Shown: positions 1,837 through 61,650 of the stretch, piece by piece | Numbering within the stretch: position 1 is the first letter of the stretch | Layout of the letters: the number at the start of each line of letters is the position of its first letter | Made by a program: the position numbers and the translations under genes | Notes under the pieces: model-generated | Seen by the model: only the letters and a program-made list of their open reading frames with translations | Databases searched by the model: none | What the model was told of the DNA's origin: nothing | Assembly: GCA_964016885.1 (NCBI GenBank) | Contig: OZ024745.1 | Span: 87,110,001 to 87,174,000 of the forward strand | Length of the DNA: 64,000 nucleotides | Source: Eledone cirrhosa | Lineage: Eukaryota | Reading direction: 5' to 3'

Positions 1837-1955
1837 GTTCCGATGAGCCGATCTGTTTTTAAATATGTTAATTATTTTCAACTGAACCAGATCAATAATG
1901 ATATATAGTCATTTGATCCAGAAATATTATATGGAGTAGCGAAACAATTGTAAAC
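1837..1955 (+). ncRNA. Hammerhead-like motif (CCGAUGA core) with branched ~90-nt stem II insert
   Basis: GUU-CCGAUGA-GC[insert]GC-GAAA-CAAUUG-UA-AAC; palindromic stem III; stem I only 3 bp. Confidence 0.55.
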
Positions 1956-1986
1956 GGACATTATTATTATTAATATTAATATTAAG

Positions 1987-2172
1987 GGGGGTTGATTGGC
2001 AGTATCAGTAGAGGGTCGGACGCCATGCTTTCCAGCATAGTCACGTCCCTTTACGATCTGAGTTCAAATCCCCCCGAGGTTGACTTTGCCTTTCATCCTT
2101 ACGGGGTCGATAAAATAAAGTACCAGTAATGCACTGGGTAATTACTGGCCTTGTACCTAAAGTAGAAACAAT
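1987..2172 (+). mobile_element. Octopus-type tRNA-derived SINE
   Basis: ttggcagtatc...gagttcaaatccc (B-box-like)...gactttgcctttcatccttacggggtcgataaaataaagtaccag...agtagaaacaatt. Confidence 0.9.
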
Positions 2173-2496
2173 TATTATTAATATTAATATTATTATTCTC
2201 TACATTCCTTACATCAAACTAAAATATGTTGACAATCTTTTAATAATGTCTTACTTGTGACATTTGTGGTCTTGTTTTGCTTAACTAATGAATATTTCCA
2301 GCTCTACGCGCCTAACGTCTGCATGAACCCAGCCACCTAGCTGCGTTCCACTGCATATTGCACATTGAGCATATCCCTTTACGCTGTGGCTTCTAACTAA
2401 TTCACCAATCTCTCCTCTCCTATCTCCTCTCCTATCTCCATCTCTCTATTTAAGATTGGTTAATCTTGAACTGTGTATATATATATATATATATAG

Positions 2497-2965
2497 TATA
2501 AAAGAGAAAACACAGGTAAGCATTAAGAGAAGGATTTTATCCAGGTATTTACGACCGTTTCATTGGTAAGTGCAACCTTATATTGCTATACTGCAAATAG
2601 CAGCCACTCAATTATAATTGTTGTTCACAGTCCAAATTTTCAAAATAGTGAGTTACTCTTGAAATAATTCTTAATATATAGATAAAAACATTTATTTGGA
2701 ATTGTATTTACTAGTATAGAGAGAGGGGAATCAGGAGGTGAGGTGACAGACGGCATAGTATAGAGAGAGAGGAAGGGGGAAGAGGTAGGAAGTAGAATGA
2801 CAAACTGAAGTGGAGGTACAGGTAGAGGTGGAAGGATTCTTTGGTCAGTTTTGATAGCAGACATCATGTCGTGGAGTGTAGTGAGTTAAAGAGAATTAAA
2901 TAGATAATAGTGGGAGGGATGGATAGAGAGGGAGAGAGAGAGGGGGGATATAAAGAGATAAATAT
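2497..2965 (-). repeat. Inverted pLTR copy at the 5' end of the Penelope-like element; partner 6810-7275 (+)
   Basis: Reverse complement of 6810-7275; near-identical spurious ORFs 2640..2867(-) and 6908..7135(+). Confidence 0.85.
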
Positions 2966-2974
2966 ATATATATA

Positions 2975-4520
2975 TTGGATAAAGCCTTAGCATTCGCTAG
3001 AGCCAATTCTGACATAACAGACGACGAGGTAAAAATCATATTAGCTGCTAGGAAAACAATAATTAAATTTGAAAACGCCTATTGGGAACGTAAGGATAGA
3101 TTAAATAACTTTGACATCACGATGGGGGCTAACCACTCGGCTCAAGTCACAGACTTAGTAGGTATTTACATAGCCCATAGTTTACAAAGCGAGTTTAGCT
3201 ACCTTCACGGTGGAATCTACAGAGACGACGCCCTTCTCCTAGTTAAGAACCTAAATAACCAGAGCATAGAAAGACTCCGTAAGAATATTAGAAAGACTCT
3301 CGGAAAACTAGACCTTAGCATAACGTATGAGTATAGCACTAAAACAGTTAACTTTTTAGATGTGACGCTTAACCTAAATACGGGACTTATAAGACCTTTT
3401 CACAAGATTAATGAAAACTTAGCATACATCAACTGTAACTCAAACCACCCACTATCAATAATTAAATCCATTCCACGCAGCATATCCCTTAGGATCTCCC
3501 ACCTCTCATCTAACCGGTAAATCTTCGAAGAACATGCAGAATACTACAATTCCGCATTAGACAAGGCAGGCCATTTAGATAGAGCAGAATATATAGATGA
3601 AAGCCTCTGTGAAGCACTCACGAACACGCATAACACAAACTCCAGAAACACACGCATACACACATTTACGCATAGAACTGCAAAGTATACGGCAAATAGA
3701 AATACAACATCGAAATCAAACAAGTCACGCAGTAGAAAATATATTTGGTATAACCCCATATTTAACACCTCTATTAGTACTAACCTACCCTCTACTTTCT
3801 TTAAAATAATAAATAGGCACTTTCCAGCTTCACATAGATAAAGCAAAATCCTTAACACTAAATCTATTAGACTATCCTACGGCACCAAATATAGAGGCAC
3901 ACATTAAGATGCTTAACGCTAAAAAGATACATAACAACACCAAAACACAAATTTACAACAATAACAATACAATTACCACCGAACACAACAGAATATCTAA
4001 TACACAAGCACCCGCTAATAGGCAAACAAAACGTCACACACTTGTTCAGGCATCGCAGCCCACAAATAATGCCAAAGTTGCCCATAACAAGAAATGTAAC
4101 TGCCACCTACCTGAAACCTGTCCATTACAAAATGAATGTATGCAGTCTAACCTGGTTTACCAATGCACAGTGGAATCAGACAACCAGAAATGGTATTACA
4201 TCGGAGCGACTGGGAATACTTTTAAAGCTCGTTGGTATACACAACGTTGCGCAATGAAACATTCCCAGCACCGTTATGTAACTACCCTTGCAAACAAGAC
4301 CTGGCAACTGAGGGAAAGTAACCATCAATACACCCTGAAGTGGAAACAATTATCAAACGCGCCCCCATATCGGAGTGGTATGAGAAGCTGTCGATTATGC
4401 GACCTTGAGCTGTTCCACATCTTAAGTTCGAAGAATAGGTAACTCAACAATAAAATTGAGAGATCAATTTATTGTAACCATAGACTCAAAGAGAAATTTT
4501 CGCACTACAAATAACCTCTT
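2975..4520 (+). mobile_element. 5'-truncated Penelope-like element (RT + GIY-YIG), pseudogenised
   Basis: FDITMGANHSAQVTDLVG, GGIYRDDALL, FLDVTLNL, SNHP; CNCHLPETCPLQNEC-LVYQC-YYIG-FKARW-H; CRLC. In-frame stops. Confidence 0.92.
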
Positions 4521-58951: not shown

Positions 58952-59044
58952 GTATGTTAAAAGAATCTGGAGTGCATCTACTTCCTAAAGACCCCGATCA
59001 AAGCTGTGTATTGACCTCGTCGGACAATTATTGTTTCAGAGCAG
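58952..59044 (+). CDS. Heme peroxidase exon E
   Basis: ttcag|...|gtaaa, phase 1-1; GMLKESGVHLLPKDPDQSCVLTSSDNYCFRA(G). Confidence 0.92.
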
Positions 59045-59129
59045 GTAAAAAAAATAAATCACAATTTTATATGTTATTTACATTCTTGTAGAATTCATAA
59101 TTTTGACGAGATAAATCAATAAAATACGT

Positions 59130-59528
59130 TTAACCCTTTAGTTACCATCCCGGCCAAAACCAGCTCTGCTTCTATGAAATAAAACCATCCATTTCAAAGG
59201 TTTCCTATTTAACCTTTTAGTTACCAAAGCGGCTAAAAACCAGCTCTGCTTCTATGAAATAAAACCACCCATTTTAAAGGTTTCCAATTTAATCCTTTAG
59301 TTAACAATCCTACTAAAACCAGCTCTGGTTCTAGGAAAGAAAACTACTCATTTTAAAGGCGTCCAATTTAAATTAAAATCTTTCAACATCATTTTATATA
59401 AGAAGATTATATTAAGTTACTATCTTAGTAATGAAATAACTAATAATTTTAGTAAATACCTCAAAATTCTTCATTAATTAATTAAAATAGAGTGTATTTC
59501 ATTATAAATGCAGTCATGAAAAGGTTAA
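59130..59528. mobile_element. piggyBac-like MITE with an internal ~61-bp tandem repeat x3
   Basis: TTAA-CCCTTT ... AAAAGG-TTAA; repeated ttaaccctttagttacc...aaaaccagctctg unit. Confidence 0.6.
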
Positions 59529-60156
59529 AGATGTAAACGTAGATATTTCCTGTCACACTCCACACTCCTAAAGTATTATACGACCCAACGAACGTACCCA
59601 GCAGAATGAAGAATCATCTCACTAATTTCCTTCAAATATTAATGTGCATTATTTGAAGTGACAACAGAGGTCGAATTTTACAGATATCATTCACTAATTA
59701 AGTGTCATTATCAGACTGACCAATATTTGGTCACCTCTGGTTTCAGCTATCTTGATCACGTAGCTTTGAGTTTTTACAAAACGGAAGTGTTAGGTTACAC
59801 TTCTGTTAACCTTCAGATAGTAGTGAAAATCGATTAAAGAGCAGTAGGTTTGTTGTAACACGGTAATATAATTAAGATTTCTCTCTCTCTTTCTCCCACT
59901 CTCTCTCTCTCTCTCTCTCTCTCTCTCTCTCTCTCTCTCTCTCTCTCTCTCTCTCTCTCTCTCTCACACACACACCAACCTGCTTTTTTTTGAAAACATA
60001 TAACATATAATTTATTTTCCGCGAAATAATTTATTTTTGTTGTGTGCTGTAAATTTGCACACACACACACACACACACACACACACACACACACACACAC
60101 ACACACACACACACACACACACACACACACACACACACACACACACACACGCGCGC

Positions 60157-60996
60157 ATTAGAATTGGTGCTCTGAAATAGCAATGTATATATAGTAATAC
60201 ACTGTATGCTTAATTAAAAGCATTTTGTAGACCATACGCTATTGTTTTAAAGTAGCGACATTGTCGCTTGCTTAAATTTTCGGCAGGCAGTGGGAGATAA
60301 GTTGACAGCGCTGTTTCGTACTAATTGGTACTTGTCAAAACTTAGTACTCTCCCCGTCTGCCGAAAATTATGTGTGTTGGATTATTATAGAATTCCAGTA
60401 ACAATCAGGAACTAATTTTACAGAGCGGCCGGCGGCTCAGCAGAAATTGAAAACTAGAAGTGGTGCTCTGAAATAGCGATATATATATGAGTGTATATTT
60501 AGTGTATTTTGCAATACACTGTATTCTTAATTGATAGCATTTTGAAGACCATACGCTATTGTTTTAAAGTAGCGACATTGTCGCTTCCTTAAATTTTCGG
60601 CCGACAGGGGGAGATATGTTGACAGCGCTCTTTCGTTCTAATTGGTACTTGTCAAAACTCAGTACTCTCTCTTTTAATTAAGCATACATTCATATATATA
60701 TCACTATTTCAGAGCACCAATTCTAATTTTCAATTTCTTCTGGGCCGGCGACCACTCTGTAAAATCAGTTCCTGATTGTTACTGGAATTCTATAAGAATC
60801 CAACACACATCATTTTCGGCAGACGGGGAGAATACTGAGTTTTGACAAGTACCAATTAGTACGAAACAGCGCTGTCAACTTATCTCCCTCGGCTTGCCGA
60901 AAATTTAAGTAAGCGACAATGTCGCTACTTTAAAACAATAGCGTATGGTCTTCAAAATGCTTTTAATTAAGCATACAGTGTATTGCAAAATACACT
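60157..60996. repeat. ~296-bp tandem unit (x1.7) followed by an inverted unit
   Basis: ggtgctctgaaatag at 60166 and 60462; ~60700-60996 is the reverse complement. Confidence 0.85.
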
Positions 60997-61228
60997 ATAT
61001 ATATATATATATATATATATATATATATATATATATATATATATATATATATATATATATATATACATTTAAGTTTGGTGGTTCACCACTGCATAGAACT
61101 GGTCATTCCGTATGTAATATTAGGAAAAGGACTCGACTCATCTATCTTTGATATTGAATCTTGTTGGTGCGAGAACGGAATTAATTATTATTGAGTAAAA
61201 TGACAGGAGGCCGGACTGACGAAATTAG

Positions 61229-61650
61229 AATACATTAACCAATACACAGTCACCCAATGACGAACACACATCAAACAAAACACTATACACACACGCAAAC
61301 GCATGCGCAAAGAAGACAAAAAATAAACAAATAAATAAATATATAAACAGACTAAATAAAGATGGCGTAGAAAATACAATGTAACGGGAAGAAACAATAG
61401 CACCACTGACGATGTTGCAGATGTGCAACGAAAGAACTTTGATAGACTATATATATGTGATTGTGTCTATATTGTATCTGTATTTTTGACCGTTGGTCAG
61501 TCAATGGCAACATTGAGGACCGAATAAATTAAATTAACCGATATAAAAAACACAGAAGCGAAAAGCGAAAACCAACCAAACAGTGAGTGTGTTCTGTTAT
61601 TAATTCTGGCAATATTACACAAATATGACCCTCCCCAAATATAACAATAT
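61229..61650 (+). mobile_element. Solo pLTR of the 49965 family with hammerhead-like motif 61402-61443
   Basis: Matches 50840-51217; CUGACGA-U-GUUGCA/UGCAAC-GAAA-GAAC-UU. Confidence 0.8.

Follow-up and report, generated by a model that had tools for sequence, protein, structure and literature searches.

Why does a single stretch of 64,000 nucleotides (nt) of the Eledone cirrhosa genome (GenBank assembly GCA_964016885.1, contig OZ024745.1, positions 87,110,001 to 87,174,000 of the forward strand; hereafter the window) carry about 25 motifs resembling type I hammerhead ribozymes, mostly as divergent pairs and in part within short palindromes that lack open reading frames (ORFs)? The original prediction, made from the sequence alone, assigned them to some 12 unrelated families and read the palindromes as a class of non-autonomous foldback retroelements. 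The observation is confirmed by the analysis reported here and the interpretation is partly supported, the unsupported part being the new foldback class. In the account that we consider probable, the motifs are hammerheads belonging to Penelope-like elements (PLEs) of several families, and the foldbacks are likely by-products of PLE insertion, formed by two short complementary DNAs (cDNAs), likely copied from one RNA, that come to lie head-to-head in (TA)n.

Hammerhead motifs in the window and in the genome

Type I hammerheads were searched for with a descriptor consisting of the core CUGANGA or its U3-A8 form UUGANAA, stem II, GAAA, a short stem III, UH, and a stem I of at least 4 bp. Block-wise (local) dinucleotide shuffles of the window served as the null. 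The strict descriptor matched 17 times in the window and 0 times in 40 of 40 shuffles; with one core change allowed, 23 matches were obtained, against a mean of 0.33 (15 shuffles). The motifs are thus real by the shuffle check that had been named for them. Their earlier list was borne out in part: 8 of the 27 positions pass the strict descriptor (2547, 5097, 5606, 7126, 21643, 21756, 43655, 53513) and 6 further ones the relaxed descriptor (4923, 7676, 27833, 28020, 30255, 53629), but the remaining 13 show the layout by eye with core or stem defects, or with a stem II longer than the descriptor permits. Defective cores include CUAAUGA with GA at the cut (30129), CUGAGAA (34946), UUGAUGA (51879) and CCGAUGA (1837). 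Nine strict matches were absent from the list, namely 8323 (-), 25711 (-), 28445 (-), 28912 (-), 29379 (-), 29557 (+), 35589 (-), 60338 (-) and 60842 (+). As had been claimed, most listed motifs are in divergent pairs (20 of 27; 12 in six short foldbacks and 8 in long inverted pairs).

The genomic background was sampled as 40 evenly spaced 10-kb stretches (400 kb) of the assembly, which is that of an animal and 3.0 Gb in size. The sample contained 34 strict matches, equal to 5.4 per 64 kb (shuffles: 0, 0 and 3), 10 of which sit in divergent pairs less than 600 nt apart. The window is therefore dense in the sense of about threefold enrichment, but over a background that is itself very high and extrapolates to about 2.5 x 10^5 strict motifs in the genome. 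With core positions 3 and 8 left free in the 400 kb, the pair was C-G in 30, U-A in 4 and other in 2 of 36 matches, compared with 4 scattered matches in three shuffles. Covariation among genomic copies was also looked for in the stems: compensatory changes in stem II distinguish subfamilies in two of the families described below (F and G), while copies within a family mostly show unpaired decay. Because of the shuffle null, the 3-8 covariation and the compensatory stem II changes, the motifs are taken to be genuine hammerheads of type I layout, formerly under selection in their source elements. A scan with Rfam, as had been suggested, returned no hammerhead at gathering score among the matches listed (150 of 207); the sole hits of model HH9 were the four family-G copies at 28.4-29.6 kb, with 37.7-38.3 bits against a cut-off of 52. 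MicroRNA matches in the same scan were rejected as hairpin and simple-repeat noise.

As separate observations, the first pair of stem II (10.1-11.1) is repeatedly mismatched, by U-U or otherwise, in families C and D and in several background families, which are unrelated, and further solo hammerhead or hammerhead-like motifs of other families lie at 51561 (-), 8323 (-) and 35589 (-).

Foldback arms and the ends of coding elements

The six short foldbacks of the window, designated families A to F, are as follows; pLTR denotes the pseudo-long terminal repeat of a PLE.

4766..5351, family A foldback: arms 4766-5295, 96% identical; hammerheads 4961 (-) and 5101 (+); of the two arms, only the right one bears the tail (5294-5351); the element is a Neptune-like PLE, represented by its pLTR end.
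21502..21870, family B foldback: the arms span 21563-21870, with U3-A8 hammerheads at 21676 (-) and 21760 (+); the left one bears the tail (21502-21565), and the centre falls at about 21718, the putative transcription start; each arm equals the 5' untranslated region (UTR) of a Neptune-like PLE.
27729..28094, family C foldback: the core reads CAGAAGA and the tail belongs to the left arm; the foldback represents the pLTR of a Hydra-like PLE family with a further occurrence at 44.2-46.4 kb.
30097..30405, family E foldback: both cores have decayed; the right arm bears the tail (30348-30405).
43566..43783, family D foldback: hammerheads 43694 (-) and 43716 (+); the left arm bears the tail (43566-43626); Hydra-like PLE end.
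53381..53691, family F foldback: hammerheads 53566 (-) and 53637 (+); the tail belongs to the left arm; Hydra-like PLE end.

The genome was queried with one arm per family, and the best 30 of 40 scored loci were examined for each, out of 72 to 1,739 candidates. In all six families, some natural copies extend upstream of the arm into reverse transcriptase (RT) or GIY-YIG endonuclease (EN) sequence. This coding extension is clear for A-D and F; in family E, where the commonest genomic copy has the core CTGATGA, it consists of one EN match of 33% and a GIY-YIG C-terminal frame. The GIY-YIG frame is reached in 18 of 30 family-A copies, family-C copies match the EN frame at 45.6 kb with 72-92% identity, and families B, D, E and F contributed one to five coding-extended copies each. 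Longer stretches revealed RT and GIY-YIG frames in A-D and F (RT motifs YVDD, YLDD and YRDD) and the endonuclease end only in E; in one family-A locus (L183), an RT-EN frame of 761 amino acids lies between inverted arms. Among 11 long family-B copies, 5 show TATA box, start, hammerhead and tail in this order, followed 29 nt after the tail by ATG, so that the family-B arm corresponds to the 5' UTR of a coding element. In family B, pLTRs occur at both element ends, a 5' pLTR followed by tail and ATG and a 3' pLTR (L184), and in family C the tail runs into the ORF (L080).

Pfam was run on 14 frames and named a weak GIY-YIG match, one RT of the long interspersed nuclear element (LINE) type and a peroxidase exon; 11 of the 14 frames had no Pfam match. 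With Pfam matches absent or weak, PLE identity was taken from sequence motifs. Families A and B possess Neptune-like Cys linkers (CIDKKCITC and CGRSNCGTC; criterion CX2-5CxxC), family C has the Hydra-like motifs RWR, NKT and CNCRNRADCPL (criterion RWK, DKT, CxCX5C), and D and F have CxCX5C-type linkers; all these clade labels are by motif only. On this sequence evidence, the foldback arms in all six families are ends of coding PLEs, in agreement with the earlier claim of minimal type I hammerheads of PLE type in PLE-derived elements. Nor are the foldbacks built from direct tandem units in the manner of retrozymes, as they are single inverted pairs that continue into coding PLEs. The window itself presents a graded series, at one end of which stands a near-full element whose ends are inverted (43981-46591); next comes a pair in which one arm has GIY-YIG sequence (49964-51218), and last the ORF-less pairs.

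Each arm comprises the part of the coding PLE that begins just past a promoter-like site and ends at either of two fixed 3' points, which lie 60-90 nt apart, so that a tail of this length marks the longer arm. Of 67 inverted insertions, among them all six from the window, 65 bear the tail on a single arm (both arms in 1, neither in 1). Tail ends run into TA in 126 of 128 cases in family B and 40 of 42 in family A, which substantiates the proposed insertion into (TA)n; since the flanks are (TA)n, target-site duplications are unreadable. Most arm pairs are 2-17% divergent. Between loci, the junction of the arms is variable in families A, C, D, E and F, and in family B it clusters at the putative transcription start. 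There, at the putative RNA 5' end, the centre of the foldback is a short natural quasi-palindrome, which accounts for its recurrence.

This start was placed by copy ends. Within about 12 nt of an A located 30 nt after TATAAAA lie the 5' ends of 17 of 30 family-B copies and, in a 3'-anchored sample, 16 of 30, both samples being pattern-selected loci. Among genome-wide family-B junctions to TA, 521 fall at the TATA+30 site, 20 at the hammerhead cut and 9 at a mid-arm control, so that the cut is barely enriched (20 vs 9); a pile-up just after the cut, seen in 4 of 30 copies of one sample, was rejected on these genome-wide counts. Family-F 5' ends concentrate at -62 to -85 relative to the core (17 of 30) and are absent from -85 to -203, and those of family A peak 44-91 nt before the core (13 of 30). 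About 80% of family-B copies are ORF-less and begin at the fixed promoter-proximal point. Exact matches to the arm number 13,570, those to the TATA region 2,638. We infer that the TATAAAA+30 point is a putative transcription start. Upstream of it (L033, L039, L048) are promoter-like motifs, which we take to be an E2F-like TGGCGCGAAA and CCAAT boxes; what are presumably an NRF1-like GCGCATGCGC and an octamer-like ATTTGCAT occur in families A and D (L011, L098) and in families F, G and H, respectively.

The hammerheads probably contribute little to the foldbacks. The two of one foldback are on opposite strands and hence do not form a dimer in cis. RNA folding was read for B, C, E and F and for stem I of A: in RNA of the whole foldback, stems I and II of B, C, E and F have a predicted probability of 0.000, as compared with 0.07-0.99 in isolated arms. 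Read-through RNA is thus predicted to bury both hammerheads, which by these folding models are passengers. Ribozyme activity is not to be assumed either, because only 1 of 9 retrozyme dimers assayed showed cleavage in the accessible text of a recent study (Li 2026; bioRxiv 10.64898/2026.07.22.740005).

Tandem retrozymes and the origin of head-to-head copies

Two further families of the window, G and H, are tandem.

28183..29890, family G retrozyme: 2.6 units on - (28183-29396) head-to-head with 1.1 units on + (29395-29890); the - block ends at the inner start site and the + block at the outer start site; hammerheads 28445 (-), 28912 (-), 29379 (-) and 29557 (+).
23339..24149 (+), family H: about 1.9 units of a 430-nt retrozyme, ending at the outer site; hammerheads decayed.

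Both consist of ORF-less tandem units of a few hundred nt with one type I hammerhead each, and by these sequence features belong to the non-LTR (long terminal repeat) retrozymes. The family-G unit measures 467 nt and has a textbook hammerhead (5,243 exact matches genome-wide); family H has a 430-nt period and 6,505 matches. As the two are about 67-68% alike, the families of the window are not all unrelated. Family-G arrays reach 20 units or more, often as two divergent blocks; head-to-head arrays of near-identical units lie on contig C1 at 30.83-30.84 Mb (about 20 units), 56.39-56.40 Mb (20+) and 5.738-5.753 Mb (about 30). Direct repeats, by which classical retrozymes had been set apart from the foldbacks, therefore do not separate the two, since the retrozyme in the window is itself head-to-head.

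Of 50 family-G 3' ends, 49 map to unit position 301-304 or 228-234; nearly all abut (TA)n, without poly(A), and two-armed loci have one end of each type in 19 of 20 cases, the exception being interrupted. By contrast to these two fixed ends, the 45 junctions are evenly spread over the unit (Kolmogorov-Smirnov p 0.72). The arms of one locus resemble each other more than they do any other locus in 9 of 12 cases and have equal unit length (468/468, 467/467), and many arms are 1.1-1.9 units long. The circle is predicted to fold with -146.6 kcal/mol (z -11 vs 40 shuffles). Two fixed array ends, one of each per insertion, are the tail signature of PLEs, for which reason retrozyme G was likely moved by PLE enzymes; a template predicted to be circular or multimeric would leave it without a fixed 5' end. 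Cleaved linear monomers were considered as the main template and rejected: matches just after the cut exceed those just before it merely 1.2-fold (6,469 vs 5,243). The family-G loci had been picked by a motif just before the cut and hence must cross it.

A reaction that would generate both kinds of copy can be outlined. The PLE protein would cut both strands of the target, and each cut end would prime one cDNA, one starting at the outer and the other at the inner site. In vitro, both strands of AT-rich DNA are cut by a PLE protein, a predicted dimer, and reverse transcription begins at two internal sites on either side of the tail, with RNA that is mostly uncleaved as the template (Frangieh 2024, PMC11167929). 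If initiation took place at the junction of the 5' pLTR and the ORF, the RNA 5' end would be reached after about 150-300 nt, much as in retroviral strong-stop synthesis, and the 3' ends of the two cDNAs could then anneal head-to-head via short homology. The resulting copies would lack a promoter and likely be dead ends. On a circular or multimeric template such as the 467-nt retrozyme, the same reaction might run for up to tens of units and thereby produce head-to-head arrays. Retroviral strong-stop DNA, for comparison, is a short first product that extends from an internal primer site to the RNA 5' end.

That two cDNAs are usually copied from one RNA is the simplest reading of the concordance between arms. 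In 30 fixed-centre family-B loci, a two-base subfamily marker was concordant between the arms of all intact pairs (about 24 informative, by-eye count), and the arms of one such foldback have private variants in common. Independent RNAs for the two arms were rejected, since several apparently discordant sites turned out to be mutations of the window itself that had been favoured by the query, and the unbiased set is concordant. The reading can be pushed further: every PLE insertion would be a twin reaction (one dimer, one RNA, two fixed starts, both ends in (TA)n), with linear messenger RNA yielding foldbacks and circular retrozyme RNA yielding rolling-circle arrays, and the genome would then provide the first direct proof, at the level of insertions, that PLE enzymes copy animal retrozymes from RNA circles, and would place the start sites to the base. 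On this general form our judgement is evenly balanced.

Several points count against the account given so far. Symmetric joining predicts tails on either side at 1:1, but in the 30 fixed-centre family-B loci the tail is on the left in 20, on the right in 7 and missing in 3 (20:7, p 0.02). Arms of mixed subfamily occur in 2 of 17 family-B foldbacks of the first sample (L045, L047) and in one family-F pair (L174), and variants shared by two arms could also stem from conversion between them. Family C has no clear 5' pile-up; the first family-B query and the family-D query began near the pile-up, leaving the pattern-based B samples and family F as the unbiased ones, and the start-site call is drawn from motif position and copy ends only. 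For the retrozymes, no PLE partner of G was found among the fetched loci, and the two-end geometry of H is clear in only about 2 two-armed loci, due to internal simple repeats.

Among the alternatives, the one that survives best concerns the source of the RNA. Short RNAs could come mainly from ORF-less copies that keep the pLTR promoter and would thus act as non-autonomous sources moved in trans, in the manner of short interspersed nuclear elements (SINEs). Indeed, 2,638 family-B copies retain the TATA region, several fetched ones are ORF-less (L033, L048, L057), and trans-mobilisation of pLTRs is described in a rotifer (Arkhipova 2013, PMC3846280). Coding copies bear the identical promoter-hammerhead-tail block before their ORF, however, and suffice as sources; we hold the alternative to be possible, with the balance against it, and it would alter the source locus rather than the formation of foldbacks.

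Less likely is a snap-back, in which a single cDNA reaches the RNA 5' end, turns back and copies itself as the second arm. It would explain the private variants common to both arms, as well as the skew of the tail, which favours the arm keeping the native start. However, the second arm would have to halt exactly at the inner start site each time, the fixed centre requires a hairpin loop of 1 nt, the tail is on the other arm in 7 of 27 loci, a few pairs mix subfamilies, and both strands are cut and extended in vitro (Frangieh 2024).

A monomeric insertion of the retrozymes, or one by a LINE, with expansion of the arrays in place via unequal crossover, is doubtful. Local amplification has been proposed (Li 2026), and near-identical units are compatible with recent homogenisation, but two fixed end sites, one of each per insertion, in (TA)n and without poly(A), are not what this predicts; both arms are multimeric with an equal, locus-specific unit length, and many measure 1.1-1.9 units. 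A later gain of units by crossover is possible.

The separate class of the original prediction, in which palindromes are copied as whole units, is very improbable. In its favour are 481 family-B foldbacks with one identical 25-nt centre, near-identical arms, and the abundance of ORF-less copies. These 481 loci (962 arms) nevertheless constitute a small share of 13,570 exact arm matches genome-wide, paired arms are spaced from about 70 to more than 1,400 nt apart, solo copies begin at the same base as foldback arms, and the tail occurs on either side. No group among the 30 loci has at least two arm-private changes in common on the same side. Arms extend into coding frames in all six families, and junctions vary in the five other than B, the quasi-palindrome accounting for the recurrence in B. 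Finally, long-read or assembly artefacts, or motifs by chance, are scarcely credible: one outer pair is 100% identical over 706 nt, but most arms are 2-17% divergent, the tail is asymmetric, there are thousands of copies, shuffles gave 0 matches, and positions 3 and 8 covary.

Further elements, known systems and meaning

The remaining elements of the window belong to the same types in various states of completeness.

1837..1955 (+), solo pLTR motif with core CCGATGA and a long stem II: it follows a decayed PLE at 1-1450, and another copy is near 35,965.
2490..7277, inverted pLTR pair (2490-2975 / 6798-7277): hammerheads 2643 (-) and 7132 (+); inside are RT/EN remains 2954-4442, the nested family A foldback and the following pair.
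5502-5853 / 6438-6796, nested pair: hammerheads 5648 (-) and about 6643 (+).
11897..20267, head-to-head insertion of 8.4 kb: outer arms 100% identical over 706 nt; long-stem-II motifs 11962 (-) and 20052 (+).
15932-16354, GIY-YIG remnant at the junction of 11897..20267: Pfam E 0.0067, below the curated cut-off.
30673..35130, Hydra-like PLE on the - strand: frames 32237-34024; inverted 3' copy on + with decayed motif 34946.
43981..46591 (+), body of a family-C PLE between inverted ends of 185 nt: RT and EN frames 44238-46348, together with a tail and what remains of the pLTR.
49964..51218, intermediate form: two head-to-head arms, only one of which has a GIY-YIG 3' fragment; motifs 50173 (-) and 50986 (+).
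61402, motif of a solo relative of the 49964..51218 pair.
60157..61018, divergent pair absent from the original list: U3-A8 cores 60338 (-) and 60842 (+).

The 3' UTR of the 11897-20267 insertion is about 4 kb of microsatellite, and its identical outer arms indicate that it is either very young or misassembled. The element at 60157-61018 has permuted arms longer than one unit and could be another circular-template family; possibly a third retrozyme-like family is represented at 24765-26008, where a unit of about 624 nt occurs twice in tandem and each time has a hammerhead-like motif with a long stem III on the - strand (25711 strict, 25087 variant).

The window has a guanine and cytosine content of 31% and is rich in (TA)n and (CA)n. 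Since an An_peroxidase (animal haem peroxidase) exon was identified at 61790-62278 (+; Pfam E 1.7e-45), the bulk of the window is probably intron. Other probable haem peroxidase exons lie at 39.67-39.84, 41.25-41.33, 53.75-53.85 and 58.87-58.96 kb; Pfam supports that at 61790-62278 alone. LINE-type retrotransposon fragments were found at 37446-38134 (-; RVT_1 E 1.3e-15), 54074-54700 and 58551-58886, and a SINE-like repeat of about 180 nt has many copies, frequently in TA tracts (1995-2170, 9710-9880, 26105-26282, 26597-26790, 31305-31490, 38442-38620 and others).

Two known processes bear a formal resemblance to the foldbacks. In L1 twin priming, two target ends prime on one RNA, which results in an inversion without duplication; here, both cDNAs cover the same stretch and a palindrome results. 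Miniature inverted-repeat transposable elements (MITEs) and Foldback DNA transposons are likewise short, ORF-less inverted repeats at TA sites in high copy number. The present elements differ from these in their unequal ends (the tail), variable junctions, the series of solo and 5'-truncated copies, and parents that encode an RT rather than a transposase.

The closest relatives are the EN-containing PLEs of the Neptune and Hydra types. An inverted 5'-truncated copy, a tail at one end and a bias to microsatellites are described as PLE features (Craig 2021, PMC8557442); inverted pLTRs, a TATA box with a TCACT initiator-like site and solo pLTRs are also on record (Arkhipova 2013), as is a promoter within the pLTR (Schostak 2008). 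According to Cervera and de la Pena (2014, PMC4209133), minimal hammerheads on opposite strands 100-700 bp apart, with the U3-A8 core and an extra base before stem II, derive from truncated PLEs. All of this recurs here: the minimal type I pLTR hammerhead with its U3-A8 variant, extra base before stem II and palindromic loop 3, the inverted copy at the 5' end, the one-end tail, the (TA)n targets, the promoter resembling TATA and initiator sites, and the 100-700 bp opposite-strand pairs. In contrast, the tail is 60-90 nt long, where 30-40 are published, most copies are ORF-less with a fixed promoter-proximal start instead of being random truncations, and the strict motifs extrapolated here exceed the thousands found in the genomes surveyed in 2014. 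With Poseidon of the green anole, as studied in vitro (Frangieh 2024), they have in common the two starts that bound the tail, AT-rich targets and the cutting of both strands; uncleaved RNA is the main template there, in line with 521 junctions at the start versus 20 at the cut in family B. Inverted products and short promoter-to-tail copies are not treated in the accessible part of that paper, and the elements described here are Neptune- or Hydra-like and known from sequence alone.

Families G and H resemble metazoan non-LTR retrozymes: their tandem units (430-467 nt) lack ORFs, are low in GC and contain a single type I hammerhead each, the arrays range from dimers to long multimers, and the predicted circle is strongly self-paired (shown for G). 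The G unit is slightly above the range of 150-450 bp, and the divergent head-to-head blocks with two fixed ends, the mark of PLEs, are unmentioned in the accessible retrozyme texts. PLEs have been named as candidate movers of retrozymes, in a text whose accessible part lacks the words 'inverted' and 'opposite' (Cervera and de la Pena 2020, PMC7229834), and phylogenetic support for this was presented by Li, Clavereau and Pollet (Li 2026), where 'tail' and 'orientation' are absent from the accessible text. The accessible parts of two reviews and of the schistosome W-element paper contain nothing on head-to-head retrozyme arrays. In a literature search covering sources other than older subscription Penelope papers and bioRxiv supplements, no report was found of head-to-head retrozyme arrays, promoter-to-tail PLE copies or cephalopod hammerheads. 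The elements thus appear to be of a known kind in an apparently undescribed form, namely promoter-to-tail foldback copies and head-to-head retrozyme arrays.

According to the accessible texts, the enzyme that moves animal retrozymes has been proposed, not shown (Cervera and de la Pena 2020; Li 2026), and the origin of tandem and inverted PLE structures is named as open (Craig 2021). The copies in this genome yield predictions at base level on both questions, namely that each family has two start sites, that the RNA 5' end is fixed and that retrozyme junctions are scattered; all of these are open to test in the existing in vitro PLE system. For the organism, the consequence would be a genome holding thousands of near-perfect hairpins of 150-250 bp, many of them intronic, and with them a large predicted source of double-stranded RNA.

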